Of a DNA stretch of 49,906 nucleotides, positions 4,858-43,454 are shown piece by piece. The position numbers and the translations under genes were made by a program. The stretch comes from Candidatus Aenigmatarchaeota archaeon (lineage in GTDB: Archaea > Aenigmatarchaeota > Aenigmatarchaeia > GW2011-AR5 > JACRMX01). Position 1 is the first letter of the stretch; each line of letters starts with the position of its first letter. The stretch covers positions 1 to 49,906 of the forward strand of contig JACRMX010000003.1 in the NCBI GenBank assembly GCA_016219485.1. Direction: 5' to 3'. The notes beneath the pieces were generated by a model. That model was given only the letters and a program-made list of their open reading frames with translations, had not been told where the DNA came from and made no database searches.

Positions 4858-4930
4858 CCGCCACTACATTGGAAAAAACAAAGTTTTTTCCATGCATAGA
4901 AAAGCTTTGCTTTTCTATGAAGTGGTGGCA
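4858..4930. repeat. Two-hairpin member of the dispersed hairpin family, enclosed by an outer stem
   Basis: Sequence layout is gccactaCATTGGAAAAAACaaaGTTTTTTCCATGCATAGAAAAGCtttGCTTTTCTATGaagtggtggc. A 33-nt stretch is identical to the reverse complement of 9607-9639. Confidence 0.8.
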
Positions 4931-4940
4931 TCAAAGCCTG

Positions 4941-5624
4941 TCAGAATTCTATCAGCTTTTTCTGCTCTTTTTCCGCCTTTATTGTCCTGGCAGTTATCCA
5001 GCTTGAGCGCACAAAGTCAGGAAACGAGCCATTGCTGCTAAACCATTCTCTTAGAAATTTTATTGTTGCCGGGTCTGATGAATAGCCTGTGCCACGAAAG
5101 CCGTAGCGCTGGCGAAGCCTTTCTATCTCCTTGTCTCTGTTTACTTTTGCTATCACAGAGGCTGCAGAAACAGGCGGGTGATTCTTGTCTGCAAAGTTCT
5201 CGCAGATGATTTTGCAGTCAAAGCCAAGCCCTGTTTTTATTTTCCTGTGAAAACCGTCAACATTGGCTTCTATGGCGTCTATAATTACCATGTCAGGCTC
5301 TGTGATTTTTATGATAGCCTTCATGGTTTCTATTTCTATGCGGTTAAGATTGGTCTTTGTCCTCAGTCTATCTATATCCTGCGCAGAAATCGATGAAAGA
5401 CTGACATCAAGCGCAAGCTTTTCAAGCTCTGGTAAAATGGATTCGCGCTGCTTTGCTGTCATCATTTTTGAGTCCCGGACGCCTGTTTTTCTGAGATGTC
5501 TTATGTTTTTTTCTTCTATTACATAGCCGCACATCACAAGCGGACCGACAACAGGGCCTAACGGCGATTCATGAGTTCTTGCTCATAAATCTCTACCGGC
5601 CTCATCGATCCCTAAAATCTTCAA
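4941..5624 (-). CDS. rnhB: Ribonuclease HII, interrupted by a 33-nt intervening sequence that contains an in-frame TGA
   Basis: The ORF track starts at 5537 (MMCGYV...). The same frame extends upstream to TTG 5624 and encodes KILGIDEAGR. Deleting 5559-5591 gives GIDEAGRGPVVGPLV, the canonical RNase HII N-terminal catalytic motif. The C-terminal part has SAASVIAKV and GSGYxSDP-like motifs. Confidence 0.85.
5559..5591 (-). other. Candidate BHB-bounded mini-intron (33 nt) in rnhB
   Basis: Contains the only stop codon (TGA 5583-5585). Forms a 10-bp hairpin GAUUUAUGAG-CAAGAA-CUCAUGAAUC. The flanks can form the helix CGGU/GCCG, with AGA and UUA bulges exactly 33 nt apart and an outer GGCC/GGCC pairing. 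Confidence 0.6.
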
Positions 5625-9529: not shown

Positions 9530-9672
9530 TTCATTAGAATTGCAAAGCAATTCATTAGAAATTCCGAAGGAATTTCTATGCACAGGAACGCAAAGCTTTC
9601 CTGATGCTATGCATGGAAAAAACTTTGTTTTTTCCAATGTGATGCATAAGATAAAGTTATAAACTTTATCTT
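9530..9672. repeat. Hairpin-array repeat, homologous to the left half of 37487-37728
   Basis: An about 110-nt segment starting cattagaattgcaaagcaattcattagaaattcc... is about 90 percent identical to 37505-37612. It holds five hairpins. Confidence 0.85.
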
Positions 9673-12998: not shown

Positions 12999-13513
12999 AA
13001 TTCAAAGAAGGAAAAATAATTGAAAAATTCAAAGCAGACGGAAAGGAAATAATTTTCAGGTTTCCGAAGAAATCTGATGCCAATAGGCTGAGGAAATACA
13101 TCAATGAACTCATAGATGAAAAGGCCTACATTGGCAAGCAGAAAAAAGTCACAAAAAAACAGGAAATTGAGTATGTTAAAAATAATCTGAAAGAAATTCG
13201 CAAGAAAGAGCGCATAGAAATCATAGCTGAACATGATGAAAAAATAATCGGAAATTCAAGCATATGGAAAAGCAGATTAGGCTACAGGGAAATGGGCATA
13301 GGAACAAAACTGCTTGAGCTTCTGATATCCATGGCAAAAAAAGAGCTCAAAGCCAGAATAGTCAGGCTGGATGTTTATGCAGACAATCCACGAGCAAAGC
13401 ATGTTTATGAGAATATAGGATTCAGGAAAATTGGTCGCATACCCAAAGGCTGCAAGCGCCAGAATGGAAGATACTACGATGATATAATCATGATTAATGA
13501 GGTGTGGAAATGA
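12995..13513 (+). CDS. GNAT-family N-acetyltransferase
   Basis: Motif A-like YREMGIGTKLLELL and NPRAKHVYENIGF. It overlaps the gatA stop and the gatB start. Confidence 0.65.
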   Translation: MKFKEGKIIEKFKADGKEIIFRFPKKSDANRLRKYINELIDEKAYIGKQKKVTKKQEIEYVKNNLKEIRKKERIEIIAEHDEKIIGNSSIWKSRLGYREMGIGTKLLELLISMAKKELKARIVRLDVYADNPRAKHVYENIGFRKIGRIPKGCKRQNGRYYDDIIMINEVWK

Positions 13514-14889
13514 TAAAAATAGGGCTTGAAATTCACTGCGCGCTGTCGTGCACAAAAACAAAGCTGTTCTGCGGGTGTCCGAACAGGGTCGTGGGCGAGC
13601 CAAACACAATAACATGCCCTGCATGTCTCGGCCTTCCAGGAAGCAAGCCCCGTGTGAACGCTGCAGCAATAGAAGCAGGGATAAAGATAGGGCTGGCGCT
13701 GAACTGTAAATTTCCCAAAGAAATTTTCTTTTCTCGAAAACAATACTTTTACAATGACCTGCCGAAGAACTTCCAGATAACGCAGTATGAAATACCGCTT
13801 GGAAAAGACGGGTTCTTTGAAACCCAGGAAAAGAGGATAGGAATAACAAGAATACACCTGGAAGAGGACCCGGGCAAAATCATTCACGCAGGAGGGGATA
13901 TGATAAAGGCTGACTACACGCTCATAGACTACAACCGCTCTGGTGTTCCGCTGTGCGAAATCGTTACAGAGCCTGACCTGCGCTCTGCACAGGAGGCGCG
14001 CATCTTTCTCGAAGAGCTTTCAAGAGTTTTGGAATATCTGGAAGTTTATGACTCTGGACGTGAAGGTGCATTGCGCGTGGACACAAATGTCTCTTCAGGA
14101 AGCGAAAGGGTTGAAGTCAAGAACATATCTTCTTTCAGGGATGTTGAAAAGGCGATTGAATATGAAATAAAGAGGCAGGCAAAAATAATAGAAAAAGGCA
14201 GCAAGGTTGTACGGGAAACGCGCGCATGGAATGGCAGCCAGACCGTCTCGCTGCGGGAAAAAGAGGCTGAAGAAGAGTATGGTTACATATTTGAGCCGGA
14301 CCTCACAAGAACAGCAATAGACGAGAAGGCTGTAAAATCGCTGAAAAAAACGCTTCCGGAAATGGCAGCTGACAAAGTAAAGCGGTACCAGAAAGAATTC
14401 AGGCTTTCCAGAGAAACCGCAGAGTCCATAACATCTGACCTGCATCTGGCGCGCATGTTCGAAACAGTGGTAAAGGATGTCGAACCGAAGCTTGCAGGAA
14501 GCTGGCTTGCTGTGCAGGTGCCAAAAACGCTAAACTACAATAACCTCAGAATAAAAGACAGCGGACTCAGACCAGAGCACCTGATTAAGTTATTAAAGCT
14601 TGTAGAACATGAAAAGATAACTGAGAAGACGGCAGAAGAAACCCTGCGAAAGATAGTGCTTAATCCACAGGACCCTGAAAATCTTGTAAAGGACATGGCA
14701 AAGATATTCGATAAAAAAGAACTCGAGGATGCTGTCAACGAAGTCCTGGCAAGCCATCCAAAGGCTATCATTGACTTCAAAAGCGGCAAAAAAGAGGCTT
14801 TAAACTTTTTAATGGGCCAGGTCATGAGAAAGACAAAAGGAAGAGGCGACTCTGCGACAATAAGGGATATTTTAAAAAAGAGGTTGTAA
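13504..14889 (+). CDS. gatB: Asp/Glu-tRNA amidotransferase subunit B
   Basis: Carries GLEIHC, CPACLGLPGSKP, HLEEDPGK, DYNRSGVPLCEIVTEPD and a C-terminal GatB/YqeY-like tail. Confidence 0.9.
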   Translation: MEMIKIGLEIHCALSCTKTKLFCGCPNRVVGEPNTITCPACLGLPGSKPRVNAAAIEAGIKIGLALNCKFPKEIFFSRKQYFYNDLPKNFQITQYEIPLGKDGFFETQEKRIGITRIHLEEDPGKIIHAGGDMIKADYTLIDYNRSGVPLCEIVTEPDLRSAQEARIFLEELSRVLEYLEVYDSGREGALRVDTNVSSGSERVEVKNISSFRDVEKAIEYEIKRQAKIIEKGSKVVRETRAWNGSQTVSLREKEAEEEYGYIFEPDLTRTAIDEKAVKSLKKTLPEMAADKVKRYQKEFRLSRETAESITSDLHLARMFETVVKDVEPKLAGSWLAVQVPKTLNYNNLRIKDSGLRPEHLIKLLKLVEHEKITEKTAEETLRKIVLNPQDPENLVKDMAKIFDKKELEDAVNEVLASHPKAIIDFKSGKKEALNFLMGQVMRKTKGRGDSATIRDILKKRL

Positions 14890-15177: not shown

Positions 15178-15530
15178 CAGTAGATAAAGTGGAATAGATG
15201 ACTTTGAAATCTTGCATTCCACTAGTCTATAGGACTAGTGGTGGAATGCGGGATGCAAGAACCACTGTAACATTGTAATGTTCGGAAAGCCTACTTTCCG
15301 ACATGTCAGAAAGCTTTGCTTTCTGAACATAGCAGCATTTTGATGAGTTCGGGATGCCACTGGTCTGTTGACCAGTGGTTCTTCACAAACCCCGTTTTTT
15401 TACAATACGCATGTAGTTTTTTTCTCTTTCCCCCTGAAATATAAGGGGAAAGAGAAAAAAACGTTCTGACAAAACATTAGGAAAGCGAGGATTTTCTGAT
15501 AAATTCCTTCAGAACTCGGAAGGAATTTGT
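15178..15530. repeat. Largest hairpin-array repeat (at least 9 hairpins, including the 16-bp TTTTTTCTCTTTCCCC/GGGGAAAGAGAAAAAA hairpin)
   Basis: Hairpins include cactagtc-tatag-gactagtg, aacatt-gt-aatgtt, cggaaag-ccta-ctttccg, cagaaagc-ttt-gctttctg, ccactggtc-tgtt-gaccagtgg, the big hairpin at 15418-15461, and aattccttc-agaactcg-gaaggaatt. Confidence 0.85.
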
Positions 15531-19647: not shown

Positions 19648-19881
19648 GAGTTTTGAAAAACCATCAGCTCGTGGACAACTGAATAGGTATGAGAAAAAGT
19701 TAGAAACTTTTTCTATGTTGGGCTATGCCCGACACATGGAAATCCTATGGATTTCCAATGTACATGGAAAAGGCTGTGCCTTTTCCAATGTTTTGTCAGA
19801 ACGTTTTTTTTCTGCTTTCCCCTCGATATTCAGGAAGAAAGAGAAAAAACCGATTTTAATAAAGAGTTTTTCAAAGTCCTC
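19648..19881. mobile_element. MITE-like member of the hairpin family with terminal inverted repeats
   Basis: The left end is GAGTTTTGAAAAACC. The reverse complement of the right end is GAGGACTTTGAAAAAC. It has the same architecture as 37487-37728 (TIR, variable hairpins, big TTTTTTCTGCTTTCCC hairpin, TIR). Confidence 0.7.
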
Positions 19882-22210
19882 AATCTTTATTATTATAATT
19901 TTAATGCTGGTGCTGCTAAGCGGGTGCATAGAGACAGGGCATCCGATAGTAGAAATAGACGTAAAGTATGGAAAACACAAAATATATGGCGAAAATAACA
20001 ACGTAGTTGCTACCTATGAAATTAAAAAGGGTAAAAACGGAGACGATGTAGAAATATACGCAGAGAATTATGGTCATGTCAAAATAAACGGGATGAAAGG
20101 AAATCCTAAAAAAATGCATGTACAAGCAGGGCTTGCTGATTTTAATACACCAATAATAGCAGTCAACGAATCTGTGACATTTGAAAAAGCCGAGATAACT
20201 CTGATGAAAACAGGGTTTGTAAACAAAATATTTTATTGTTCCGGATGGAATATGGAACAATTTAGTTGTTCAGAATGGGTAAAAACCAACCTAAGTCTTG
20301 TTGCCAATAGCACGCACATTGTTTTCACTGTAGACCATTTCACAGCCTATGCCGGCGGTGTTGGTTACGAGTCAAACCTGACTGTATGGGATGATAGCGA
20401 TGAAAAAGCTGTAGGCGAGAACCAGAATGTTTATTTCTATGCAAACTTCACTAATGCGACGTCTGGTAAACCGATAAATGGAACAGGTGTGAACTGTTCG
20501 ATTGCATTCGGTGAACAAAAAGAAATGCGATGGAATGCCACCTCTTTGTTGCACGAATACAACACGTCGTTCTCTGCCCCAGGAACATTTAGCTGGAATG
20601 TTACGTGCAATGGAACATCTTTGGGTTATGATTTTTTGAATACCACTGATACCGTCCTGATATTGGACACAACCAACCCTGTTGTAAATATACAGCTGCC
20701 GCTGAATGCAACTAATATGACAACTCAGGGCATAAATTTTACAGCAACAGATAACGTAGCTGTAGACAAATGCTGGTATTCACTGGGTGCTGGAAATACA
20801 AGCCTGTCAAATTGCGCAAATATTTCTTCTATAACAGGCGAGCAGCAGGGCTTCAACAGGCTGCGTGTCTATGCAAATGATACAACTGGTAACATAGGCA
20901 TGAACGAAATTAACTATACACTAGATTCCAAGGGCCCTGTAATAAAAGATTTGACTGAAATGCCAACAGATCCAGCAGAGTATTTAGCATCACAATTCTA
21001 CGAATTCAATGCAACAATAACAGATGCGCAGAGGGCAGTCAGCAGCGTGTGGATTGAATGGAATGGCACAAACTACACCAGCATCTATAACACCGGAAGC
21101 ATATACTCTTTCAACAGGTCTAATCTTCCCATTGCATCACATAGTTATAAATGGTATGCAAATGACAGCCTTGGAAATGTAAATGTAACTGCGTTACAAA
21201 CATATATAGTAAGGGATACTACGCCACCTTTTGTTGCCATACAGCTGCCGCAGAATAGATCATATACAAACATGACGATGAATTTCACAGCTGTTGACCA
21301 GGCTTTTGGAGTATGCTGGTATTCGCTGAACAGGGGCACAACAAACACCAGCCTGCCCAGCTGCAGCAATCTTTCATCAATCGGAACAGAAGGTTTCAAT
21401 GAGCTGTGGTTATGGGCAAATGATACGACAGGAAATGAAAACGTCGCTAAAATAAATTTCACAAAAGACCTCACTGGGCCATTTATATTGCTGGGAAATC
21501 CTGCTAACAACAGCTGGTCAGCCTCATCGTCAAATACATTCTACTATACACCATATGATAATAGTACCATAGCAAATTGTACGCTTGTTATTGATAGCGC
21601 ATATAACCAATCGAATGCAAGTGCAGTTTCAAAAGGCACTGCAAATACCATGGCAGCAGGGCTGGCAGACGGAACGCACCTATGGACAGTAAACTGTACA
21701 GATGAGCTTGGAAATCAGGGCACAAACACGACAGCAAAAACCATCAATATAGATACGATAACACCAGTCGTGCAGATAGTGTACCCGCAAAACGCCACTT
21801 ATACGACTACATCCTTGCATCTGAACTTCACCTTCACGGAGCAGAACAGAGACAGCTGCTGGTACAGCCTTAACAATGGTGCCAATACGACCATCACCGG
21901 ATGCGCCAATGGCACAGCAATAACAGCTATGCATGGGCATAACAACATAACGCTATGGATGAATGATTCTGCCGGCAACACAGGCTCTGGCAGCGTTTTT
22001 TTTGTGCAAAATAATGCTCCAGGCATAGTTAACCAGAATGCGACATCTGGCGCAACAGGCGTGATAAGTAATGCAACAAACCCGACCAATAACAATACAT
22101 TTGTGAGGTTTACAGCAGAATATTCAGACGCGGACAGCGATAATGCAACAGTTTACATATGCAAACAGGATGATGGCAACCGCTATGGGTGCGGCCAAAT
22201 GGAACAATAA
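19736..22210 (+). CDS. Giant surface adhesin-like glycoprotein, N-terminal part (reading frame broken at about 22195)
   Basis: Signal or lipobox-like segment KKEKKPILIKSFSKSSIFIIIILMLVLLSGC, followed by three approximately 90-aa Ig-like modules (DTTNPVV...CWYSL...ANDTTGN). N-x-S/T sequons are very dense. The start is uncertain (ATG at 19637, 19715, 19736 or 19904). The ORF-track start 19523 overlaps the upstream gene and is rejected. Confidence 0.7.
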   Translation: MEILWISNVHGKGCAFSNVLSERFFSAFPSIFRKKEKKPILIKSFSKSSIFIIIILMLVLLSGCIETGHPIVEIDVKYGKHKIYGENNNVVATYEIKKGKNGDDVEIYAENYGHVKINGMKGNPKKMHVQAGLADFNTPIIAVNESVTFEKAEITLMKTGFVNKIFYCSGWNMEQFSCSEWVKTNLSLVANSTHIVFTVDHFTAYAGGVGYESNLTVWDDSDEKAVGENQNVYFYANFTNATSGKPINGTGVNCSIAFGEQKEMRWNATSLLHEYNTSFSAPGTFSWNVTCNGTSLGYDFLNTTDTVLILDTTNPVVNIQLPLNATNMTTQGINFTATDNVAVDKCWYSLGAGNTSLSNCANISSITGEQQGFNRLRVYANDTTGNIGMNEINYTLDSKGPVIKDLTEMPTDPAEYLASQFYEFNATITDAQRAVSSVWIEWNGTNYTSIYNTGSIYSFNRSNLPIASHSYKWYANDSLGNVNVTALQTYIVRDTTPPFVAIQLPQNRSYTNMTMNFTAVDQAFGVCWYSLNRGTTNTSLPSCSNLSSIGTEGFNELWLWANDTTGNENVAKINFTKDLTGPFILLGNPANNSWSASSSNTFYYTPYDNSTIANCTLVIDSAYNQSNASAVSKGTANTMAAGLADGTHLWTVNCTDELGNQGTNTTAKTINIDTITPVVQIVYPQNATYTTTSLHLNFTFTEQNRDSCWYSLNNGANTTITGCANGTAITAMHGHNNITLWMNDSAGNTGSGSVFFVQNNAPGIVNQNATSGATGVISNATNPTNNNTFVRFTAEYSDADSDNATVYICKQDDGNRYGCGQMEQ

Positions 22211-25200
22211 CAGATGACAGCAGCGATACAGTAACGCTGTCATACAAATGGTACAAAAACAGCGCAGAAATAGCTGGCCAAACACAGTGGAATCTTACAG
22301 GCTCATCGTTCAATCATTATGACAACATAACCTGCGAAATAATGCCAACAGACAACCATAATTATGCTGGTGCTGCCAGGAACTCAACAACCATCCAGAT
22401 TAAAAACTCTCCGCCTGTTGTGTCCATAGGCAACACATTTACAGACTATACAACACAGCACGCATTCAATGTAACAGCAACTGCAACAGACGCAGACGGG
22501 CTAGCTGATATAACGTCGTGTAAAATCTGGCGAAGAACCGGCAGTGACGCTTACGTTTCTGAAGCAGGTGAAATTTCCAGCGGCAACTGTATTGCAAAAA
22601 TAGACACGACTGATAGCGATGGCAGCGGTGCATTCGCTGTAAATGACAACATCAGCATAATGGTAGAATTTTTTGATGCATCAGACAGTACAAACACAAC
22701 TGCCTCTTTGCATGCTATACCAAACCAGCCACCTTCTGCCAGTAACGGCGATGTTTTACCAAGCAGCCCGAATACAACACAAACACTGACATGCTCATAT
22801 ACGTTTTCTGATCTAGAAGGCGATGCTGATAACTCAACATTCAAATGGTATAAAGACAATGTTGTCCAGGCAGGATTAAATTCAGCAACAGTTTCTGGCA
22901 GCTATACAACAGAGGGCGAGACATGGAAATGCGAAATAGCTCCTATTGACCAGTATGGCGGCACAGGCAGTGCTATAAACTCAACAAACGAAACAATAGT
23001 AAACAGCCCGCCAACCATATCCATAGGCAACACGTTCACAGACTACACAACCGAGCACGCATTCAATGTTACAGCAACTGCTTCTGATGCAGACGGACTG
23101 ACGGACATAACGTCATGCAAAGTGTGGCGAAGAACAGGCAGCGATGCCCATGTTTCCGAGTCTGGCATATACATCTCAGCAACTGGAAACTGTACAGCAA
23201 AGATTAATACGTCAGACAGCGATGGCGGCGGAACATTTGCTGTATACGATAGTGTGGATATAAAAGTGGAATTCTTTGATGAAGCTGAGAGCGTGAATAC
23301 ATCCTCATCATCGAATAGTATACCAAACAGGGCGCCTGAAACCAGTACGCCAGCACTCGTGCCTGCTACAGTATACAAAAATACAGCAAACATAACATGT
23401 GCAAACACAACAACAACAGATGCAGACAGCGATAACGTAACATTTCATTACAAATGGTTCAACAATAGCGCTGTGATAACAGGCGCAATAACCAATTATC
23501 TTACCAATGACAGCTATGCGCACTTCAATAATATAACATGCCAGATAATGCCTGATGACAGCTACATCAATGGCAGTGCCAGAAATGTATCTGTTGTGAT
23601 AACAAACACGCCGCCAGCTGTTGCCTCGTCAGAGATTGTGCCTGCTGTGGCTTACGAGACCACTGTTTTGAACTGTACCAATGGCAGCGTAAGCGATATT
23701 GACAGCGATGTAGTAACGCTGCTGTACAAATGGTACAAGAATAGTGCTGTGATATCAGGCCAGACACAATGGAATCTGACTGGAACGTACTTTAACCATT
23801 TTGACAATGTGACATGCCAAATAACGCCTTATGATGGATATGACAGCGGAACGCCTGTCAATGCAACTGCTGTGCAGATACTGAACACAGTGCCAGCAAT
23901 AAGCAATGTTGCTGTTACGCCAAGCATAGCGTATACAAATGACACGCTGACATGTAGTGGAACATTTGCAGATGTGGACAGCGATACAGAGGCTGGCTCA
24001 ACATTCAAATGGTACAGGAATGGAACTGTAATTGACGGCCAGACGAACAGGCAGCTTAATGCTTATGTCATACGCAAGCATGAAAATGTAAGTTGTGAGT
24101 ACAGGCCAAAGGACGGTTATGATTTTGGCAGTGCTGCGAACAGCACTATGGTAACTATACTGAACGCCAAGCCTATTGTATCGTCTGTTTCAATTCTGCC
24201 TTCGCCTGCCTACGAGAATTCTGTGTTAAATTGTACAAATGGCACAGTAACAGACAGGGATAATGATACGATAACGCTATTCTACAAGTGGTACAGGAAC
24301 GGAAGCGAAATAGGACAGGTCGCGTGGAACTTGACAGGCACATATTTCAACCACTTCGATAATGTAACATGCCAGATTACACCATACGATAATGACGAGA
24401 ATGGGACAGCTATAAATTCCAGCACCCTGCAAATATCAAACACACCGCCAACGCTGGATTCAGCATCTATTGTTCCAGCTACTGCTTACGAAACTTCTGT
24501 TTTGAACTGTACCAATGGCTCGACGAGTGACGTGGATGCTGACAGCGTAACGCTGCTGTACAAATGGTACAAAAACAGCATTGTCATAAGCGGCCAGACA
24601 CAATGGAATCTGACTGGAACGTACTTTAATCATTTTGACAATGTGACATGCCAAATAACGCCTTATGATGGCTATGACAGCGGAACGCCTGTCAATGCAT
24701 CAGCTGTGTCAATACTTAATACACCGCCTGTGATAGCTAACGTTGCTGTTACGCCAAGCATTGCGTATACAAATGATACGCTGACATGCGACGGGACGTT
24801 TACAGATGTGGACAGCGATGCAGAGGCTGGCTCGATGTTCAAATGGTACAGGAACGGAACTGTAATTGACGGCCAGACGAACAGGCAGCTTAGCGCTTAT
24901 GTCATACGCAAGCATGAAAATGTAAGCTGTGAGTACAGGCCAAAGGACGGTTATGATTTTGGCAGTGCTGCGAACAGCACTATGGTAACTATACTAAATG
25001 CTAAGCCCATCACTACGTTAACAAATATAACGCCAAAAATTGCGTATGAAACCTCGGTGCTAAACTGCACAAATGGTACAATAATAGACAGGGATAATGA
25101 TACGATAACGCTATTCTACAAGTGGTACAGGAACGGAAGCGAAATAGGACAGGTCGCGTGGAATTTGACAGGCACATATTTCAACCACTTCGACAACATC

Positions 25201-26418
25201 ACATGCCAGATTATGCCGTACGATACAGAAGAAAATGGAACATCTGCAAATGATACAATAGAAATACAAAACAGCCTGCCTGTCATTTATTTCATAAATG
25301 TAACCCCGTCTGCAGACGGGTGGGGCGAAACCTTCACGTTCATTACGAATGTCAGCGATGTAGACAATGATAGCGTAAACATATCGCTCTGGCTTTCATC
25401 AAATAATGCAACATGGTCATATGACCGGACAACAAACTGCACATCATGCCTTCAGAAAACTAAAATAAATATTACAAAGACTGATTTCACATGTTCCAAC
25501 ATAGGTCAAAACTTCTTCAGAATTAATGCAACAGATGAATATGGTGCTACAAATATCTCATGGAGTGCAAACTTTACACTGCTCAAAAGCACGCTAAATC
25601 AGGGTAATATGGTAATAACACAGGGCGACGGCACACGCGTAGGTACAAGAGGCACTGAAAGTACGCACATAACTGTATCCATATATGATTCAAAAAGAAA
25701 TATATTTGTAACATCAGGCGTACGAGGCAGAATATGGGTAATGAAGAATAGTACGCTGTGGAACACCGGACAGCCGTGCACAACAACCAGCAATGGCAAT
25801 TGTACCATAACATTCGACCCGGACTGCACCTATCAGGGTGATGCAAGAGAATTCAGGGGCGGAATATACAATGACACGTGTTATTTTGATGTTAATTCCA
25901 CAACAGGCCATATAATAATAGACCCTGGCGTGGAATGCATGCATGAAATAACCTTCGTACTTGAGCTGAATATAAGCGGAACAGAAGATGACGTATTCAG
26001 AACATCGGCAGGAACTGGTGATGCCTTTTTCATATCAGGGGAAACCACCCAGTACTATATATGCGTAGAAGATGCTGCAATAGAAAAAATTCCTGTATTC
26101 GGCATCGTATTCTCCGGGGATGATTTTAGTACGCTGAACATAAGCTCGCGTAAGATGCAAATGTCCCAGTATCAGGCAGGGAACATGTTCATAATGCCTG
26201 TAACCTATGGTGGCTGCAGCGCAATACAGAGAAAAATAGACCTGATAAAAAACAACAGGTTTCTTACGCAGCCATATGCGTGGTTTAATGACAATACATA
26301 CCCGCTGGAGATTTCGCTTGACTATCCGGTAAATATAAGAGGCGAAGAGTCGCTGAAGGGAAGCTTCATATTGACACTTGAAAAAAATGGAAGCACGATA
26401 GACGCCAAAGTGAGGTGA
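22189..26418 (+). CDS. Giant surface adhesin-like glycoprotein, C-terminal part (1,409 aa)
   Basis: At least nine modules share the C-x-NG-x3-D-x-D-x-D-x2-T-x2-YKWY-x-N...DN(V/I)(T/S)C pattern, and sequons are dense. It continues the module that begins in the upstream frame. Confidence 0.8.
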   Translation: MRPNGTITDDSSDTVTLSYKWYKNSAEIAGQTQWNLTGSSFNHYDNITCEIMPTDNHNYAGAARNSTTIQIKNSPPVVSIGNTFTDYTTQHAFNVTATATDADGLADITSCKIWRRTGSDAYVSEAGEISSGNCIAKIDTTDSDGSGAFAVNDNISIMVEFFDASDSTNTTASLHAIPNQPPSASNGDVLPSSPNTTQTLTCSYTFSDLEGDADNSTFKWYKDNVVQAGLNSATVSGSYTTEGETWKCEIAPIDQYGGTGSAINSTNETIVNSPPTISIGNTFTDYTTEHAFNVTATASDADGLTDITSCKVWRRTGSDAHVSESGIYISATGNCTAKINTSDSDGGGTFAVYDSVDIKVEFFDEAESVNTSSSSNSIPNRAPETSTPALVPATVYKNTANITCANTTTTDADSDNVTFHYKWFNNSAVITGAITNYLTNDSYAHFNNITCQIMPDDSYINGSARNVSVVITNTPPAVASSEIVPAVAYETTVLNCTNGSVSDIDSDVVTLLYKWYKNSAVISGQTQWNLTGTYFNHFDNVTCQITPYDGYDSGTPVNATAVQILNTVPAISNVAVTPSIAYTNDTLTCSGTFADVDSDTEAGSTFKWYRNGTVIDGQTNRQLNAYVIRKHENVSCEYRPKDGYDFGSAANSTMVTILNAKPIVSSVSILPSPAYENSVLNCTNGTVTDRDNDTITLFYKWYRNGSEIGQVAWNLTGTYFNHFDNVTCQITPYDNDENGTAINSSTLQISNTPPTLDSASIVPATAYETSVLNCTNGSTSDVDADSVTLLYKWYKNSIVISGQTQWNLTGTYFNHFDNVTCQITPYDGYDSGTPVNASAVSILNTPPVIANVAVTPSIAYTNDTLTCDGTFTDVDSDAEAGSMFKWYRNGTVIDGQTNRQLSAYVIRKHENVSCEYRPKDGYDFGSAANSTMVTILNAKPITTLTNITPKIAYETSVLNCTNGTIIDRDNDTITLFYKWYRNGSEIGQVAWNLTGTYFNHFDNITCQIMPYDTEENGTSANDTIEIQNSLPVIYFINVTPSADGWGETFTFITNVSDVDNDSVNISLWLSSNNATWSYDRTTNCTSCLQKTKINITKTDFTCSNIGQNFFRINATDEYGATNISWSANFTLLKSTLNQGNMVITQGDGTRVGTRGTESTHITVSIYDSKRNIFVTSGVRGRIWVMKNSTLWNTGQPCTTTSNGNCTITFDPDCTYQGDAREFRGGIYNDTCYFDVNSTTGHIIIDPGVECMHEITFVLELNISGTEDDVFRTSAGTGDAFFISGETTQYYICVEDAAIEKIPVFGIVFSGDDFSTLNISSRKMQMSQYQAGNMFIMPVTYGGCSAIQRKIDLIKNNRFLTQPYAWFNDNTYPLEISLDYPVNIRGEESLKGSFILTLEKNGSTIDAKVR
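23611..25278 (+). repeat. Tandem duplication of an 834-bp (278-aa, three-module) unit inside the adhesin gene
   Basis: Unit 1 is 23611-24444 and unit 2 is 24445-25278. Long runs are identical, for example ggccagacgaacaggcagctta and gtacaggccaaaggacggttatgattttggcagtgctgcgaacagcactatggtaactatact. Confidence 0.85.
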
Positions 26419-32218: not shown

Positions 32219-34117
32219 CTAATTGATATAGGCGTTATCTTTATAAAGTTTAAAATTCTGTCTGAAAAAATTTTCTATCAGGACTTCAGGGCTCTTTGTG
32301 ACATGGATTGCCATGTCCCTCGGAAACAGCTTCCTGTAGTTGTTCCATAAAAAGCGCTTGTCCATGAATATGCAAACACCACGGTCTGTCTCGCTTCGTA
32401 TGCATCGTCCGGCTGTCTGAAGAGCGCGCAGAACAGCCGGATAAACATAAGCGTATTCCCAGCCTTTGCCAAATTTCTTATTGTAGTGATCTATAAGCGC
32501 CTGAACCTTCAGTGTGGGCTTTTCCAGCGCAACACCGACAACTATGACAGCATTCAGCGCTTCACCAGGATAATCTGTGCCTTCTGCATAGGACCCGGAT
32601 TGCGCTCCTAGAAGCATGCCGCCTTCCGTGTAGCTTGATATGAATGTTTCGTAGAGAATATTTTTTTCCTTCTTGGTCATGCCCTGCTCTTCTATGAACA
32701 GCATTTTGTCTGTAGTCAGAAAGTTCATCACCATATCCCGCATGCTGTAGCTTGGAAAAAATACTGCTATATTTCCCGGTATTTTTGAAGCGCATTTGTT
32801 TATGTACGATGCCATCGTCCTGTACTGTTCATCATTTCTTTCCGTGTATTTTGTCGTGACATCAGGCAATGCTATATTGAGCCTGTTCTCCCTAGGAAAG
32901 TCTGACTTGTACTCTCTGTAAACAGACCTGCCGGCTTCAAGCCCGAGAACATCTCTGTACATCTCAGCAGGCCTGAGCGTTCCAGACATGAGCACAGAAG
33001 AATGAATTGCCGTGAATATATCACGGGTTATCAGCGATGGGTCAAGGCAGTCATAGTGCAGTGTTATAACTTTTTTCTTTCTTATTGTCTCTGACTTCAG
33101 TATTCTTGCAAAGCCCTCGTCCTCGCCAGGCCATGCCTGCAGGAAGCCTGCGATGCCGCCTATAAAGGACTTTCTCTTTTCATCCCTGACTATGTCAGCT
33201 GCCTCTGAAAGGCTTGTAATAAGGTCAAAATAATCGCAGCTGCTTTCTATCCCTGATATCAGCTCCTGCTTTTTGACAAACCTGTCTTCTCCGGAGTACT
33301 GCTCGTTTACGATTGATTTTATGAGGTCAATTTTTTCAGTCAGTTCATCGTCTTTAAGTTCCTCTGCCTCCTTTCGTGCATTGTGCAGGCCAAGCGTGGA
33401 CATTCTCTGCGAAAGAAGTTTTCTCACGCGCTCTGGCAGATTGTGCGCCTCATCCACAATAAGTATGCAGTCACCAAGCTCCTTTTTCATTCTTCCCAGA
33501 AGCTGCTCCCTTATTATTGAAAACATGTGATAATAATCTCCGATTACAAGGCTGCTTTCCCTTGCCAGCCTCAGCACAATCTCATAAGAGCAGTGAAGCC
33601 TTGCCATATCCTTAATTTCCTCTGCATGCCTTGGCTGCTTTTTTATATCATGCAGGCAAGCGTAGGCAGATTTTGTAAACTTCTGGTTTTCAATTGTCTT
33701 GTTGAAAAAAGCGCACCTTCCTGTTTCCCTCATTCTTTTGCAGAATTCAAAAAAGTCTGGCATCGGCAGCGTGTCAACAGCAGGCTGGTTGCACAGCCAT
33801 TTTTTTCCTATTATGTCCGCAGCAACTATGCCAGCGCCCTTCTGGTTCATTTTCTTTATTGTTTCTATTACAATCCTGTGCTGCGAGTGGCGGGATGTGA
33901 GAAAGAAAACAACCTTTCCGTTGTCAACAGCGTATTCCATTGCAGGCACCAGGACAGCAGCTGTTTTTCCTATTCCTGTCGGCGCATCTGCAAGCAGATG
34001 ATTTCCTGAAGCCACGCAATTTGCAACATCTTCCATAAAATCTTTCTGCCCGGCGCGTATTTTGTCAAACGGAAAAAACCTCATAGAAGAAACATTTTCC
34101 GGCAATTTTAAATGCAT
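32219..34117 (-). CDS. xpd: XPD/Rad3-family Fe-S DNA helicase
   Basis: Walker A is ADAPTGIGKT and the DEAH box is IVDEAHNL. Four Cys lie in the Fe-S insertion (CNQ...C KRMRETGRC ...C). Late helicase motifs include QTAGRCIR. Confidence 0.85.
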   Translation of the reverse strand: MHLKLPENVSSMRFFPFDKIRAGQKDFMEDVANCVASGNHLLADAPTGIGKTAAVLVPAMEYAVDNGKVVFFLTSRHSQHRIVIETIKKMNQKGAGIVAADIIGKKWLCNQPAVDTLPMPDFFEFCKRMRETGRCAFFNKTIENQKFTKSAYACLHDIKKQPRHAEEIKDMARLHCSYEIVLRLARESSLVIGDYYHMFSIIREQLLGRMKKELGDCILIVDEAHNLPERVRKLLSQRMSTLGLHNARKEAEELKDDELTEKIDLIKSIVNEQYSGEDRFVKKQELISGIESSCDYFDLITSLSEAADIVRDEKRKSFIGGIAGFLQAWPGEDEGFARILKSETIRKKKVITLHYDCLDPSLITRDIFTAIHSSVLMSGTLRPAEMYRDVLGLEAGRSVYREYKSDFPRENRLNIALPDVTTKYTERNDEQYRTMASYINKCASKIPGNIAVFFPSYSMRDMVMNFLTTDKMLFIEEQGMTKKEKNILYETFISSYTEGGMLLGAQSGSYAEGTDYPGEALNAVIVVGVALEKPTLKVQALIDHYNKKFGKGWEYAYVYPAVLRALQTAGRCIRSETDRGVCIFMDKRFLWNNYRKLFPRDMAIHVTKSPEVLIENFFRQNFKLYKDNAYIN

Positions 34118-37100
34118 TAAGATATCTTGCTTTGAACTGTTTTTTTCGCCTCTTCGCTTGTCTTTCTGCTTTCCTTTTTTGCTTTTTCGAGCTTTGCCTT
34201 GTCAAGCCAGTCTTTTTTTGTAGGGCACTCCATGTCCAGGCACATCCGGAATGGCCTGCCTCCCTGCCGCCTTACCTGTATAATAGGCGTCTTGCATTCG
34301 TTGCATGTCTTTCCTGTGCTCATGATAAGCCCTTCGTGCGGAAGCGGAAAGCCGACTCTACAGCCCTTTTTGTAGCCAGAGCACCCGACAAATCTTTTCT
34401 TCGTTTTCCAGTTCTTATGGACTTTTAGCGTCCCGCCGCATTTCAGGCATACGCCCAGTTTATTTTGCTTATCCTGCGTTGCTATGACAGCATCTGTCAG
34501 CTCTTCGCCTATTTTTTTCTCTTTCTTTTTGAACTCTGCTGAAATTTTTTCTATTGTTTTTTTTGCATCCTCAAGAACATCTTCCCTTTTTTTGTTCCCC
34601 TGCTCGACAAGGTCGCACTCCTCTTCAAAGTGGCGCGTAAGCTTTTCTGAAACAACTTCTGAAACATTTTTTTCAAGTATATTCGCAAGATTTACTCCAA
34701 GTTCAGTAACTTCAATGCTGCTCCCTATGAGATAGCCACGGTTATATAGTATCTGCAGAATAGATGAACGCGTAGAATTATGAACCAATACTGAACCATT
34801 AGTTATGAAATTAGGAGACTCCGGCGACACGGAGATGTCAAACACAAACAAATTGTCATCATTAAGCTCTTCAATACTAGTAACCTCTGAGGCGTACAAC
34901 TCGCCAGAAATGTGCTCATAGCTGGCCCTTAACGCATGTATAAAATAGTCTTTGTCCAGAATCTCGTATAAAACTCTGTTAGGCGGTCTGGAATATGGCG
35001 AAAGTCTTTTTCTTTTTATGATACCAAGTTTAACCAACCGCTTCAAAGCTGTTTCTATTTCATAAGCATTATATCCTGTAATATGCTTAAGCTGGCATGC
35101 ATCAAGATCATGTTTTTTCAATGCCAATAATAGAGCATAACATACTTGCAGCCTCTTATACCTTAAACAATCGGCCATCAGACCTTTATAAAGAATATTT
35201 CTTTTGTGGTCTACATCAAAACCTACTTTCCATGCATATCTATCTACATTATCTCTGCTTCCAATTCGTATTGTGAAGCAGTCAAAATATTTTTCCTTTA
35301 GTTTTGCCTTTTGTTCATGGACCATGACTTCAATCCCAATAGAAGCCAGAAGATCCTTTATCCATAAAATATGGTCTTTTCTGGCTAATGAAATTTTAAC
35401 TCTTGGCACGCCATGAGCCATGCATGCAGTGCCTTGTATTTTTACCGGACCTATATTTCTAAAATGAACATTGCCATCTGCATCAAAGAACCCCCGCAAA
35501 AAGTCTCCGCAAAATTCTGCAGGAATGTCAAACCGTGCTTTGCTTTTAATTTCAGGAAAATTTTCTGCCATAAATCTTGAAATCAAAGCATTACACTGAA
35601 CCTTATATTGATTATTTTTGACTAGATAAACGCCTAGTTCCACACCAAATATTCTTTTTATGCGTTTTTTCAGAATATTCAAAGCTTTTTTTTCTGTAGT
35701 GGTGAAGTAAACCTGATGAGAACCGTTATATTTTGGAGAGCTATAGCTTCCATCACCATAAAAATAACCCAGCAACCATGCCAAATCACTTGTCCATTTA
35801 ATAGGCAGGGCATTTCTGTTTATACCTAAATTACCTTTTGAAGAAAACTTGTTAAGATACATATCATTGTATAGCTTGAAATTTCTATTAAGAAACCAGC
35901 TTTCGTCTGCCAAGGGCGCACCTGTTTTGTTTTTGGATATTATGCTGAGAAGCTTATCGCCTTTGGAAATGTCTTTTGCAGCCTTAAGTTTTACTCCGCC
36001 ATCAAAGAGATAGATAGGGTGGTCTCCTGTTGCTTTCAGTTCTCCTCCATTTATGCTAATACAGAATAATTTTTCATTTTTCATGAGTTTTCTTCTTGAT
36101 ATCAGTTGCGGCTTATGAAATTCAACATCAAAACTATTTTCATTCAGAGCTGCTTCAAGCGTGCGCTTTCCTGTAACGCTGAACAGCGCGCCATTGACAT
36201 CAAAAATAATTTTCTGTGACTCGCGCTTTGCAGGCTCGCCAAAGACTGCCATAAACCTGCGCACAACTAAATCATAAACATTCTTCTGCCTGTTGCCAAG
36301 CAGTTTAGGAACCTGCCATGTTGGATAAACAGCAGGGTGCGCAGGGTCTTTTTTCGCGCCCTCGTTGGGCTTTAATGAGCCCTGCAAAAGAAGGCTGGCG
36401 CCTTTTTCATACTCCTTGCGTTTTGAAAGGCTGGTAATAATGCGCTTGTAATTTATGTCAGCCGGCAATTTTTCGCTAGCTGTGCGCGGATACGAGATGT
36501 AACCTTTCTGGTACAATTCTTCTGCAAGCATCATGCCCTGCTGCGGCGAATAGCCGAAATAACGGTAGATATCAGCAAGCAGCGATGTAGTGTTGTAAGG
36601 TATTGGCGGTTTTTGCGTGTATTTTCTTGTTTTGATATCTGTAACAACAGCGTCCTTTGCCTTTGCCTTTTCCAGAAGCTTTTCAGCCTCTTTCCTATCC
36701 CATATTTTGTCTTTTTCATATTGTGCCTTCAGTGTTTCCTTGCCGATTTCAATCTGCGCCTCAATCTGCCAGAACGGCTTGGGCTTAAACGCCTGAATTT
36801 TTTTTTCATGTCTGGCAAGCATGTGTAGCACAGGACCCTGAACCCTGCCTGTAGATAAAATCCTGAATCTTTTGTTCGCAGCCTTTATTGCATTGGTCAG
36901 CGCCCTTGTTAAATTTATGCCCCAGTACCAGTCAAGATAATGCCGGGTAAATCCGGATTCGGCAAGATTTTTATTCAGTGATGTCGCGGCATGCTCGTAG
37001 CTTTCTATGAGCTCTTCTTTTACCATGGTACTAAATTTCATGCGGGCCGCATCGTTCTTTCCGCATATCAGGCTAAGAATATTGTAGCCTATTATCTCGC

Positions 37101-37440
37101 CTTCATCATCATAGTCAGTTGCAACAAAAAAGTCATTTGCACCTTTTGCAAGCTGCTCCATGTTCCTAAAATAAGGCTCTGAGAATGCAGCAAAACGGCT
37201 TGCCTTGAAGCTTGGCACCCATTCCACGTCAAAACGCGGGTAGTCCCAGCCTTTGCCTGTCTGCTTTAGAGTAAAGAGATGACCAACAGCAGGCGCTGCA
37301 ATGAAGTTCTTCCCATCACGCTGGAACTCGTACCATACAGCATTCTTTTCGCCGTATTTTTTTATGCCATTTTCAGCCAGCGCATCAGCTATTGCCTTTG
37401 CAGCAGACGGTTTTTCGCATATAATAAGCGCATGTGACAT
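34117..37440 (-). CDS. topA: Type IA DNA topoisomerase containing an intein, with C-terminal zinc ribbons
   Basis: The Toprim region has IICEKPS and TDYDDEGE. The catalytic Tyr region is GYISYPRTAS. It also has RRFMAVF and STRSSILQILYNRGYL...VTELG, plus C-terminal CxxC...GCSGY zinc ribbons. The stop overlaps the XPD start by 1 nt. Confidence 0.9.
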   Translation of the reverse strand: MSHALIICEKPSAAKAIADALAENGIKKYGEKNAVWYEFQRDGKNFIAAPAVGHLFTLKQTGKGWDYPRFDVEWVPSFKASRFAAFSEPYFRNMEQLAKGANDFFVATDYDDEGEIIGYNILSLICGKNDAARMKFSTMVKEELIESYEHAATSLNKNLAESGFTRHYLDWYWGINLTRALTNAIKAANKRFRILSTGRVQGPVLHMLARHEKKIQAFKPKPFWQIEAQIEIGKETLKAQYEKDKIWDRKEAEKLLEKAKAKDAVVTDIKTRKYTQKPPIPYNTTSLLADIYRYFGYSPQQGMMLAEELYQKGYISYPRTASEKLPADINYKRIITSLSKRKEYEKGASLLLQGSLKPNEGAKKDPAHPAVYPTWQVPKLLGNRQKNVYDLVVRRFMAVFGEPAKRESQKIIFDVNGALFSVTGKRTLEAALNENSFDVEFHKPQLISRRKLMKNEKLFCISINGGELKATGDHPIYLFDGGVKLKAAKDISKGDKLLSIISKNKTGAPLADESWFLNRNFKLYNDMYLNKFSSKGNLGINRNALPIKWTSDLAWLLGYFYGDGSYSSPKYNGSHQVYFTTTEKKALNILKKRIKRIFGVELGVYLVKNNQYKVQCNALISRFMAENFPEIKSKARFDIPAEFCGDFLRGFFDADGNVHFRNIGPVKIQGTACMAHGVPRVKISLARKDHILWIKDLLASIGIEVMVHEQKAKLKEKYFDCFTIRIGSRDNVDRYAWKVGFDVDHKRNILYKGLMADCLRYKRLQVCYALLLALKKHDLDACQLKHITGYNAYEIETALKRLVKLGIIKRKRLSPYSRPPNRVLYEILDKDYFIHALRASYEHISGELYASEVTSIEELNDDNLFVFDISVSPESPNFITNGSVLVHNSTRSSILQILYNRGYLIGSSIEVTELGVNLANILEKNVSEVVSEKLTRHFEEECDLVEQGNKKREDVLEDAKKTIEKISAEFKKKEKKIGEELTDAVIATQDKQNKLGVCLKCGGTLKVHKNWKTKKRFVGCSGYKKGCRVGFPLPHEGLIMSTGKTCNECKTPIIQVRRQGGRPFRMCLDMECPTKKDWLDKAKLEKAKKESRKTSEEAKKTVQSKIS
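34777..36063 (-). mobile_element. Intein with a LAGLIDADG homing-endonuclease domain inside topA (N-terminal boundary uncertain, possibly up to 36150)
   Basis: Block B is ATGDHPIYLF. The DOD motifs are LLGYFYGDGS and LRGFFDADGN. Blocks F and G are NLFVFDISV...NFITNGSVLVHN, followed by Ser+1 (S889). Confidence 0.8.
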
Positions 37441-37486: not shown

Positions 37487-37728
37487 GAGTTTTGAAAAAC
37501 CCTACATTAGAATTGCAAAGCAATTCATTAGAAATTCCTTCGGAATTTCTATGCATCGGAAAGCTCGGCTTTCCTGATGCTATGCATGAGAAAAACTTTG
37601 TTTTTCCCAATGTCTCGTAAACAGTTGAATAGATTTGTTATAACGTTTTTTTCTGCTTTCCCTCAAAATTAGGGGGAAAGAGAAAAAAACCGTATGTGAT
37701 TGGAAAAACAGGGTTTTTCAAAGTCCTC
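37487..37728. mobile_element. MITE-like member of the hairpin family with 13-bp terminal inverted repeats
   Basis: The left end is GAGTTTTGAAAAACCCT. The reverse complement of the right end is GAGGACTTTGAAAAACCCTG. Inside are four hairpins homologous to 9530-9640 plus the big hairpin TTTTTTTCTGCTTTCCCT-caaaatt-AGGGGGAAAGAGAAAAAAA. Confidence 0.75.
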
Positions 37729-39183: not shown

Positions 39184-40290
39184 TTATCTTGTAATCTTCT
39201 GTTTCTTCACAAATTCATACAGCTTGCTGGCCTTTCCTTTCTCAAAATGCTCGCGAACAGGTTTTACTAACGCATCTATGTTTTCAGCCACAGCGTTTTT
39301 CAAATCCATTGGGTGCAGCTCGCCCATGCGGAATGCTTTTTCCAGTTTTTCATAACTTTCGAATTCAACCGGTCCACCGAATTTTGCCGGCCTAGTGATT
39401 TTCATTGTTCCAAAAGCCCGGAATATTATATGCTTTGAATAATCCAGCATAGGATTGTTTTCTATGTCTCTAGGCGCGCAATAGGCTCTGGATATTTTTT
39501 CTTTTATCTGCTCTTTGCTGTCATGAACAAAAATGCCTGTATTTGGCTTGCTCTTGCTCATCTTTGATGATATGGATGCATCCATTTCCTTGTTTTGCTC
39601 AAAACCTTCCGGAGTTTTCAGACCTTCAAGTCCCATAAGCATGTGATGGCTTACAACAACAGGCTTTTTCCAGCCTAGTTTTGGGGCAACTTCGCGGGCA
39701 AGCATCCCTGCTCTGCGTTGGTCCAAGCCAAGCTGCGTTATGTCAACGTCAAGATGAAAAATATCAGCACACTGCATCATGGGATAAAAATACTGCGCAG
39801 TTTCTGCCATTTCGCCTTCCTTTCTGCCCATTATTGTAAGGCAGCGGGTAGCGCGGCTCACGGTAGTATTTTTCGCTATCAGAATAACCTTTTTCCAGTA
39901 TTCGCTGTCCATGCTTTTGCTCGCGAATACGTATTCAACATCCTTTACGCCTGCTGCTTTCCATACTTCTATGAAATATTCTCCGACTTTCTGTATTTTT
40001 TCCAGGTCTCCATCCATTTTGTTGTTAATCCACGCAAACCAGTCTGCAAGCCATAGCTTAAACTTAATGCCAGCTTTCTGCATATCCTTAAGCAATAGGG
40101 GACGGAATACGCCGAAAGGCAAATGAGCTACTGTGTCTGAGTAACAGAACGTTAATCAGTATCCACTAGGCTCAAAGCCGTCGTAAGCTATTGGGTGCTG
40201 CTTCATTTCCAATAGTTCTCGCAATTCCTGCTCTGTTATGATTTCCTCGCCTACGCTTTTAATTAATTCTAATTTTGATTCTATATCCAT
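39184..40290 (-). CDS. tyrS: Tyrosyl-tRNA synthetase, interrupted by a 30-nt intervening sequence containing an in-frame TGA
   Basis: The ORF track starts at 40122 (TTG). The same frame continues upstream to ATG 40290, encoding MDIESKLELIKSVGEEIITEQELRELLEMKQHPIAYDGFEPSG, then Y-stop. Removing 40132-40161 gives GFEPSG-VA-HLPFG, which has the same spacing as GFEPSG-KI-HLGH in archaeal TyrRS. Downstream motifs are KMSKSKP and the C-terminal ELHPMDLKNAVAE. Confidence 0.85.
40132..40161 (-). other. Candidate relaxed-BHB mini-intron (30 nt) in tyrS
   Basis: Holds the only stop (TGA 40156-40158) and the hairpin CUGAUUAAC-GUUCU-GUUACUCAG. An AUA bulge lies 5' of the hairpin, a GUG/CAC short helix pairs 5' exon with the intron 3' end, AG(U) is unpaired on the 3' side, and an outer helix GAGC.UA/UAGCUC can form. 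Confidence 0.55.
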
Positions 40291-40371: not shown

Positions 40372-40552
40372 ACAAGGAAAAGTTAGAAACTTTTCCTTGT
40401 ATCGTTAGAAGGTTTTTTCTGCTTTCCCTTGTATTAGGGGGAAAGAGAAAAAAAACCGCACTGGATATATTGGAAATTCCGAAAGAATTTCCACATACAG
40501 AATTACTTTGTAATTCTGATATATTGGAAAAACGGGGTTTTTCAACGTCTTC
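40372..40552. repeat. Hairpin-array repeat with a right TIR-like end only
   Basis: Contains aggaaaagt-taga-aacttttcct, the big hairpin TTTTTTCTGCTTTCCCT-tgtatt-AGGGGGAAAGAGAAAAAAAA, ggaaattc-cgaaa-gaatttcc and agaattac-tttg-taattct. It ends GGGGTTTTTCAACGTCTTC. Confidence 0.8.
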
Positions 40553-43282: not shown

Positions 43283-43380
43283 ACTTTGACGGTTTATATA
43301 CTTTTTCTTTGTCCATCCTTTACAGAGACAAAGAAAAAGGTGAAATATAGAGATTTTTCAGTCATTTTTTACCTTCCTTT

Positions 43381-43454
43381 GAGATTGAGACAACAAAATG
43401 GCTCTGAATCATTTAATGAGATTGAGACAACAAAATGGCTCTGAATCATTTAAA
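43381..43454. repeat. Tandem direct repeat, 2 x 37 bp
   Basis: gagattgagacaacaaaatggctctgaatcatttaa(t/a) occurs twice with no spacer. It is preceded by a 13-bp-stem hairpin at 43300-43338. Confidence 0.9.

Follow-up and report, generated by a model that had tools for sequence, protein, structure and literature searches.

Genome analysis of Candidatus Aenigmatarchaeota archaeon, a DPANN archaeon, revealed a tyrosyl-tRNA synthetase gene (TyrRS; tyrS, minus strand) that is interrupted by a 30-nt insert between the codons for the GFEPSG motif and those for the HIGH-equivalent histidine. The analysis covered the first 49,906 nucleotides of contig JACRMX010000003.1 (assembly GCA_016219485.1), hereafter called the window. 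The insert (40131-40160; Table 1) very probably represents a relaxed bulge-helix-bulge (BHB) pre-mRNA intron in a single-locus, essential gene, which would be cut by the tRNA splicing endonuclease (EndA), followed by religation of the exons. An EndA-type intron splitting this essential gene had been proposed in an earlier reading of the window from its letters alone (the original prediction), and is supported by inserts at the same site in other species, by the cut rule known for BHB introns, by a compensated base pair between exon and intron, by a low ratio of nonsynonymous to synonymous substitutions (dN/dS), and by the use of TGA as a normal stop codon.

The TyrRS open reading frame (ORF) as initially listed (39184..40122, minus strand) opens with TTG and lacks the N-terminal signature region, but the same frame extends upstream to ATG 40290, both as originally described. 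Without splicing, this frame encodes 43 amino acids (aa; MDIES...AYDGFEPSG), followed by Y, a stop (TGA 40156-40158), LTFCYSDT, and VAHLPFGVF..., down to the TAA at 39184, which is the reading that had been claimed. No further stop or frameshift occurs in the gene. The TATA-like box reported upstream of the ATG was found as well, and its placement suggests a leaderless tyrS mRNA. An Rfam scan of the window gave no matches, nor did ARAGORN with default settings. About 120 nt upstream of the tyrS ATG, one copy was found of an intergenic palindromic element of approximately 58 nt (UUUUUUCUCUUUCCCC...GGGGAAAGAGAAAAAA), which occurs four times in the window (15417-15474, 19806-19863, 37645-37702, and 40412-40469) and could be a terminator-like or a miniature inverted-repeat transposable element-like repeat.

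Removal of the 30 nt with borders at 40131-40160 yields a TyrRS of 358 aa that reads GFEPSG-LA-HLPFG. Comparison of this joined product with TyrRS profiles, as the original prediction had advised, returned NF006330 (archaeal tyrosine-tRNA ligase equivalog) over residues 1-346 with 387.6 bits (cut-off 220), and the Pfam domain tRNA-synt_1b covers residues 31-332. Furthermore, the joined protein aligned to the TyrRS structure PDB 8zmi (E 2.7e-92) without any gap where the predicted exons meet (query ...YDGFEPSGVAHLPFGV versus ...YDGFEPSGRMHIAQGV). The best 120 database homologs were all intact TyrRS of about 356-388 aa, those with a named source being from Aenigmarchaeota, and the closest among these 120 showed 89% (P0001) and 80% (P0002) identity. 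Exactly two residues separate GFEPSG from the histidine in 11 of the 11 homologs aligned, in agreement with the spacing originally expected, and these residues are L-A in eight of them.

The closest homolog is encoded on a contig (L001) that is syntenic with the window (CN_hydrolase ... PcrB, UbiA, tyrS, serS, topA, XPD). Its tyrS, located between UbiA and serS and encoding a protein with 89% aa identity, contains no insert. In the DNA alignment, the 30 extra nucleotides of the window fall between GGAT and TAGCT of L001, and only deletion of 40131-40160 yields the GGA TTA GCT of this ortholog, as a shift by one base to the left gives GTA (Val) and by one base to the right a TAA stop. Hence, the borders given in the original prediction (40132-40161) are off by one base, those used here fitting the L001 alignment base for base; of the GFEPSG-VA-HLPFG proposed there, the two-residue spacing stands, and Val is replaced by Leu. 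According to tblastn of the L001 proteins against the window, the remaining shared genes are colinear, except for topA, which has an insertion the size of an intein, and for one small ORF of poor conservation.

Inserts at the same site were retrieved from tyrS of at least seven further species. The search made use of a degenerate pattern on the flanking codons that allowed 13-43 extra bases between the Gly (GGN) and His codons and placed no constraint on the Ala codon, on the family of the Ser codon, or on the last base of the Gly codon; because it demanded a GAGCC and HLPFGxFRP context, prevalence figures are lower bounds, biased to close relatives. Six loci belong to GTDB species-representative genomes (four titled Aenigmatarchaeota metagenome-assembled genomes and two labelled 'archaeon' or 'uncultured archaeon'), and three more to metagenomes of the Joint Genome Institute, one of which is identical to a GTDB locus, giving nine public loci besides the window (L003-L011) with eight distinct sequences. 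The intron-bearing relatives include the groundwater metagenome-assembled genomes JACPRW01 and JACPAH01. The inserts of these nine loci measure 29, 20, 21, 20, 31, 29, 20, 31, and 21 nt, and are thus mostly not multiples of three. Nevertheless, the cut rule restored the frame and G-(L/M)-A-H in all ten loci, the window included, and gave spliced ORFs of 359-369 aa in the six loci that were long enough to test. In addition, the string GGA-WAC-UGA was found in every intron-bearing locus.

These lengths bear on translational recoding, whereby TGA would be read as a sense codon with insertion of 10 aa, or the ribosome would bypass or shift frame over the hairpin, as in T4 gene 60. Indeed, a stop codon ahead of a stable hairpin is reminiscent of signals for bypass and frameshifting, and the length of the window insert is a multiple of three. 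However, inserts of 20, 29, or 31 nt in six of the eight other distinct sequences exclude simple read-through, and where the length is not a multiple of three neither read-through nor an in-frame protein insertion works, but only removal at the RNA level. Moreover, TGA is not a sense codon, because it ends 15 of the 37 long ORFs in the window; it is an ordinary stop, and the standard code applies. In none of the sequences is exon 2 preceded by a GGN codon on which a ribosome taking off from GGA could land, and if the ribosome hopped in frame from UAC to UAC in the window, four surplus residues would remain in a loop that has the same length in all aligned homologs. Recoding is therefore highly improbable.

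As to the RNA structure, cleavage of the cbf5 pre-mRNA intron separates residue 2 from residue 3 of the BHB bulges (PMC2738675), and this cut rule was used for every locus. In the window, it gives exactly the borders that were obtained by homology. A fold of the 101-nt stretch around the insert showed an exon-exon helix, a short pairing of exon 1 with the intron, and a hairpin, its z score of -2.6 versus shuffles being modest. The AUA bulge and the central helix of three base pairs plus G.A came out as originally predicted; the inner hairpin, announced as 9 bp, folds as 8 bp with one mismatch. Across the nine distinct sequences, RNAalifold returned the outer, central, and inner helices independently, and with the structure given explicitly 88% of the cells were paired, versus 26-40% with the partners slid. 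The outer helix (UGAGC/GCUCA) is 87% paired. The inner helix (CUGA/UCAG) has its first three pairs invariant across species and the fourth one kept in eight of the nine sequences. The 5' bulge is canonical (AUA or AAA) in all homologous introns, and the central helix has four standard pairs in L004, L005, L006, and L011 (GCGG/CCGU, GCGG/CCGC, GUGG/CCAU).

Table 1. Coordinates of the tyrS and rnhB genes of the window, their putative introns, and the predicted structural elements of the tyrS transcript
Feature	Position	Strand	Description and basis
tyrS	39184-40290	minus	Interrupted by the 30-nt insert
TATA-like box TATTAAAA	40313-40320	minus	Centre about 26 nt upstream of ATG 40290; identical in L001
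tyrS exon 1 (predicted)	40161..40290	minus	ATG 40290, 43 codons plus first base (U) of the Leu codon; ends ...GGA U; from the start of the frame and alignment with N-termini of intact Aenigmarchaeota TyrRS
Putative mini-intron, BHB-like, 30 nt, ACUGAUUAACGUUCUGUUACUCAGACACAG	40131..40160	minus	Missing from syntenic L001 exactly at GGAT/TAGCT; homologous same-site inserts in L003-L011
tyrS exon 2 (predicted)	39184..40130	minus	Starts UA GCU CAU (completes Leu, then Ala-His...), ends at TAA stop; spliced coding sequence gives 358 aa containing ...GFEPSGLAHLPFG...
In-frame UGA	40156..40158	minus	Second codon past the last whole exon 1 codon (GGA-UAC-UGA); also in the inner stem CUGA/UCAG
Outer exon-exon helix, 5' strand UGAGC	40170..40174	minus	From Phe-Glu-Pro codons; RNAalifold consensus
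Central helix, 5' strand	40163..40166	minus	Exon 1 GUGG, from Ser AGU and Gly GGA codons; pairs with ACAC 40133-40136
5' bulge AUA, three nt	40160..40162	minus	Predicted cut between 40161 and 40160 (AU/A)
Inner hairpin CUGAUUAAC-GUUCU-GUUACUCAG	40137..40159	minus	8 bp plus U.C mismatch
Central helix, 3' strand	40133..40136	minus	Intron ACAC; three Watson-Crick pairs plus G.A
3' splice-site loop AGU	40130..40132	minus	Predicted cut between 40131 and 40130 (AG/U); opposite unpaired exon 1 nt (40167-40169), hence an internal loop and no pure bulge
Outer exon-exon helix, 3' strand GCUCA	40124..40128	minus	From Ala-His codons; RNAalifold consensus
rnhB	TTG 5624 to 4941	minus	33-nt insert inside the catalytic DEAGRG motif of RNase HII
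Putative rnhB mini-intron	5560..5592	minus	33 nt, DEAGR/G, in-frame UGA; same architecture as the tyrS insert

Covariation between exon and intron was found at column pair 12:44, which joins the third base of the Ser codon to an intron base; this pair is C-G in five and U-A in four of the nine sequences, and broken in none, both states occurring in the long (29-31 nt) as well as in the short (20-21 nt) intron class. Codon choice at synonymous exon sites went along with the presence of the intron. The Ser codon is AGY in all nine intron-bearing sequences versus three of the seven intronless ones (L001, L002, and five sister genes), and the Gly codon is GGA in nine of nine versus two of seven, in a comparison that ignores phylogeny. 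The covariation is supporting evidence, not proof.

The same data allow weighing a split gene, in which an N-terminal peptide of about 44 aa and a C-terminal protein of about 312-318 aa would be translated apart and assemble non-covalently, as for the split genes of Nanoarchaeum, the RNA structure serving translational coupling or nothing. Split protein genes are known in DPANN (PMC3491384), and in the short-intron loci L004, L005, L006, and L011 the last intron base and the 'UG' of exon 2 form UUG or AUG exactly at the exon 2 border, 12-14 nt past the UGA, so that termination and re-initiation are conceivable there. In contrast, the border carries no start codon (GUA, AUA, or UUA) in the window, L003, L007/L010, L008, and L009, and the first possible start of the window, TTG 40122, falls past the conserved histidine, which would leave the C-terminal piece devoid of a catalytic residue. 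Moreover, separate translation leaves unexplained the compensated exon-intron pair, the AGY/GGA codon bias, and the restoration of the frame by the cut rule in every locus. A split gene is hence very unlikely, if marginally less so than recoding.

Several findings weigh against the presence of a functional BHB intron in tyrS. The covariation score was reached by 54 of 500 shuffles, the nine sequences being related and only one pair being fully compensated. The strict hBHBh' form, with two 3-nt bulges and nothing opposite, was not found, since the 3' element (AGU, AAU, or AUU) faces two unpaired exon nucleotides (N-A) in all species and thus forms a 2x3 internal loop, and the central helix of the window contains a G.A mismatch. 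When unconstrained, the tyrS insert region of the window has a minimum free energy fold (-16.3 kcal/mol) other than the BHB fold, which at -14.6 kcal/mol is less favourable by 1.7 kcal/mol. Scanning both strands of the window with a BHB descriptor gave thousands of raw matches, and about 3,100 under a tighter descriptor. Furthermore, EndA gave no match in about 159 kb of Aenigmarchaeota DNA searched with an M. jannaschii query, a negative that is uninformative. Lastly, a second tyrS might be present beyond the 49,906 nt of the window.

The latter point, together with the in-frame stop within an essential gene, would fit an insertion that turned this tyrS copy into a pseudogene, with a functional copy elsewhere, or an assembly error. 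Yet, the L001 gene, to which the locus is orthologous and syntenic, is intact, and no other stop or frameshift occurs in the locus itself. The Nei-Gojobori dN/dS versus L001 amounts to 0.087 overall (dS 0.73), exon 1 having 0.046 and exon 2 having 0.093, indicating that both exons are under strong purifying selection, which makes a pseudogene very unlikely. In addition, inserts at the same site occur in nine more loci from independent projects, with intact flanking ORFs wherever these are long enough. Inactivation or artefact thus has as little probability as recoding.

With respect to the structure, the fold alone proves nothing about the tyrS insert, because its z score is modest and chance matches to the descriptor are abundant. 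What rises above chance is that the cuts predicted from the structure coincide with the junction defined by homology, and that other species have an insert at this very site. We are dealing with a relaxed, BHB-like motif and not with a strict hBHBh', because its 3' element is an internal loop instead of a clean bulge. A search for more introns that combined the descriptor scan with an ORF-merging filter recovered tyrS and rnhB but also many spurious mergers at gene borders, and was dropped as non-discriminating.

From the homology-defined junction and the predicted fold, we infer that cleavage and ligation of the tyrS transcript occur, and by which enzymes, as follows. Exon 1 UGAGC and exon 2 GCUCA would form the outer helix, and exon 1 GUGG would pair with ACAC at the 3' end of the intron into the four-position central helix, leaving AUA as a 3-nt bulge ahead of the intron hairpin and AGU as a 3-nt loop that separates the central helix from the outer one. 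Both 3-nt elements would be cut by EndA after their second nucleotide, and an RtcB-type ligase would join ...GGAU to UAGCU..., resulting in a UUA codon for Leu and an uninterrupted TyrRS of 358 aa. At archaeal BHB introns in general, EndA cleavage leaves 2',3'-cyclic phosphate and 5'-OH ends, which RtcB ligates. The predicted spliced junction consists of ...CCUAGUGGAU joined to UAGCUCAUUUG..., and the peptide expected to span it is ...GFEPSGLAHLPFGVFR. If unspliced, the mRNA would be translated up to the UGA two codons into the insert only. Cleavage of a relaxed motif by EndA is plausible, because DPANN variants of this enzyme with extra loops have been linked to increased disruption of tRNA genes (PMC5829648).

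A parallel case, also put forward in the original prediction as having a like topology, is present in rnhB, where the insert was confirmed. The rnhB insert folds with a four-pair central helix (CGGU/GCCG), a 5' bulge AGA, and UUA after the central helix on the 3' strand, besides a 10-pair hairpin and an exon-exon helix that is long. With the cut rule, DEAGRG is restored through AGA GGC (Arg-Gly), and the joined protein aligns to RNase HII (PDB 1uax) ungapped over residues 1-207. Just downstream of rnhB (4866-4899), a 34-nt piece was found, reverse-complemented, of a 109-nt intergenic repeat that is present at 9532-9640 and 37505-37613 in copies that are 89% identical.

The distribution of the tyrS introns among relatives was patchy. 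In a neighbour-joining tree of the 120 homologs and the spliced proteins, the intron-bearing genes were scattered, with six of the seven, the window included, adjoining an intronless sister; intronless sister genes were located for six intron-bearing lineages. Furthermore, the 29-nt introns that lie within 25-97 of L003 and within 137-209 of L008 (both minus strand) are identical, whereas their flanking exons are only 77% and 62% identical. Both loci come from different Aenigmatarchaeota species representatives of the same groundwater project. From the identity of these two introns, it seems that either the whole intron is strongly constrained or it has recently moved laterally; set in diverged exons and combined with the scatter across the TyrRS tree, this identity points to lateral spread or repeated gain and loss of the putative tyrS introns. 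Tentatively, and with more doubt than confidence, one may picture Aenigmarchaeota as hosts to a mobile population of mini-BHB introns (20-33 nt), which insert into codons for catalytic motifs of essential protein genes, the sites at hand being just before the HIGH motif in tyrS and inside DEAGRG in rnhB. If so, with two introns per approximately 46 genes (50 kb), a whole genome would be expected to hold dozens of them, far above the single cbf5 case known in any archaeon, and the in-frame UGA, which is invariant, would be a safeguard by which translation stops early on any mRNA left unspliced.

Some other features of the window deserve mention. A tRNA-like gene (2166-2359, minus strand), missed by Rfam and default ARAGORN, has its 5' acceptor strand and D arm (GGGCGCGUAGCUUAGCUUGGAUAAGC) separated by an AT-rich stretch of about 118 nt from its T arm and 3' acceptor strand (GGGGGUUCAAAUCCCUCCGCGCCCG). 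Brute-force deletion of approximately 2209/2210-2326 made ARAGORN return a tRNA-Arg(UCG) of 74-75 nt, and the gene appears to carry an intron of about 118 nt at a non-canonical position near 31/32; no convincing BHB was found in the gene at 2166-2359. A second GGGCGCGTAG lies about 55 nt upstream (about 2376-2415). A topoisomerase IA-like ORF of 1107 aa (34117-37440, minus strand) has about 310-400 aa inserted when compared with its L001 ortholog of 711 aa, and the inserted part is a probable intein because of a LAGLIDADG_3 match at aa 646-740. Between serS and topA, L001 contains a 529-aa ORF (12524-14113) with no Pfam match that is missing from the window. An ORF of 1409 aa (22189-26418, plus strand), which contains internal repeats, some of about 830 nt and others shorter (families D1-D5), and a neighbouring ORF of 895 aa, for which Pfam gave no match, adjoin T2SSE/T2SSF (pilus/archaellum-type) genes. 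An intergenic 37-nt unit is perfectly duplicated in tandem (43380-43453). In a six-frame view, the gaps between long ORFs held only ordinary small genes (gatC, ribosomal protein S26e) and repeats.

If the tyrS and rnhB inserts are indeed spliced, tRNA-type mRNA splicing is no crenarchaeal oddity but occurs in DPANN too, in core genes of translation and replication. One would then have to ask how splicing keeps in step with transcription and translation that are coupled to each other, for which the conserved early UGA offers a testable idea. As gene callers split or truncate such genes, essential DPANN genes that are considered missing or pseudogenised may partly be annotation artefacts, and such calls feed the inference of host dependence and of genome completeness. 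The tyrS insert would further be a compact natural case in which one sequence has to satisfy the needs of coding as well as those of RNA structure, with the Ser codon covarying at its third base with an intron base.

In the literature searched, only cbf5 of Crenarchaeota is cited for BHB introns in archaeal protein-coding genes, and full-text searching gave no report of a BHB intron in tyrS, in rnhB, in Aenigmarchaeota, or in DPANN protein genes. We infer that the tyrS insert is spliced and belongs to the same mechanism class as the cbf5 intron, in new genes and a new phylum. Watanabe 2002 and Yoshinari 2006 reportedly dealt with the cbf5 pre-mRNA intron of Crenarchaeota as well. That intron has been described in Desulfurococcales and Sulfolobales (Yokobori 2009; PMC2738675). 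The tyrS insert shares with it the position of the predicted cuts between bulge nucleotides 2 and 3, the location inside a codon (between bases 1 and 2) at a catalytic or highly conserved motif, a patchy presence among related species, and mis-annotation by gene callers. Similarly, it breaks an otherwise intact, selected ORF for which intronless orthologs with a precise junction exist. It differs in its host gene, tyrS (and rnhB for the parallel case), in its phylum, Aenigmarchaeota/DPANN instead of Crenarchaeota, and in the invariant in-frame UGA two codons in; whereas the cbf5 intron is backed by cDNA and in vitro EndA cleavage, the tyrS one is known from its sequence. Aenigmarchaeota are not known to possess the crenarchaeal heterotetrameric EndA with its specific loop, which is a further difference.

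Two other systems are less close. HAC1/XBP1 splicing, with a cut by IRE1 and joining by tRNA ligase or RtcB, also removes a short mRNA segment defined by stem-loops, independently of the spliceosome, and alters downstream translation; in contrast to the tyrS case, its nuclease is unrelated to EndA, its motif consists of two 7-nt loops, and it forms part of a regulated stress response, no sign of regulation being found for tyrS. The bypass of T4 gene 60 similarly involves a stop soon after a Gly GGA codon and a hairpin in a short non-coding gap of an essential gene, but it needs matching take-off and landing codons, which are missing in tyrS, where gap lengths and structure fit the geometry of an endonuclease.

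The BHB introns of archaeal tRNA and rRNA genes, said to have been treated by Marck and Grosjean 2003, resemble the tyrS insert in their four-position helix between two 3-nt elements, in their outer and inner helices, and in cuts (predicted ones for tyrS) that fall on either strand 2 nt beyond the central helix, those of tRNA genes (11-175 nt) being of a similar size range too. Relaxed BHB forms (HBh', hBH, and BHL) are common where the specificity of EndA has broadened, DPANN included (PMC5829648; PMC12397907). Unlike these introns, the tyrS insert would be removed from an mRNA, and its 3' site is a 2x3 internal loop instead of a bulge. Furthermore, both of its flanking helices are made of codons, and therefore structure and coding constrain the same bases.

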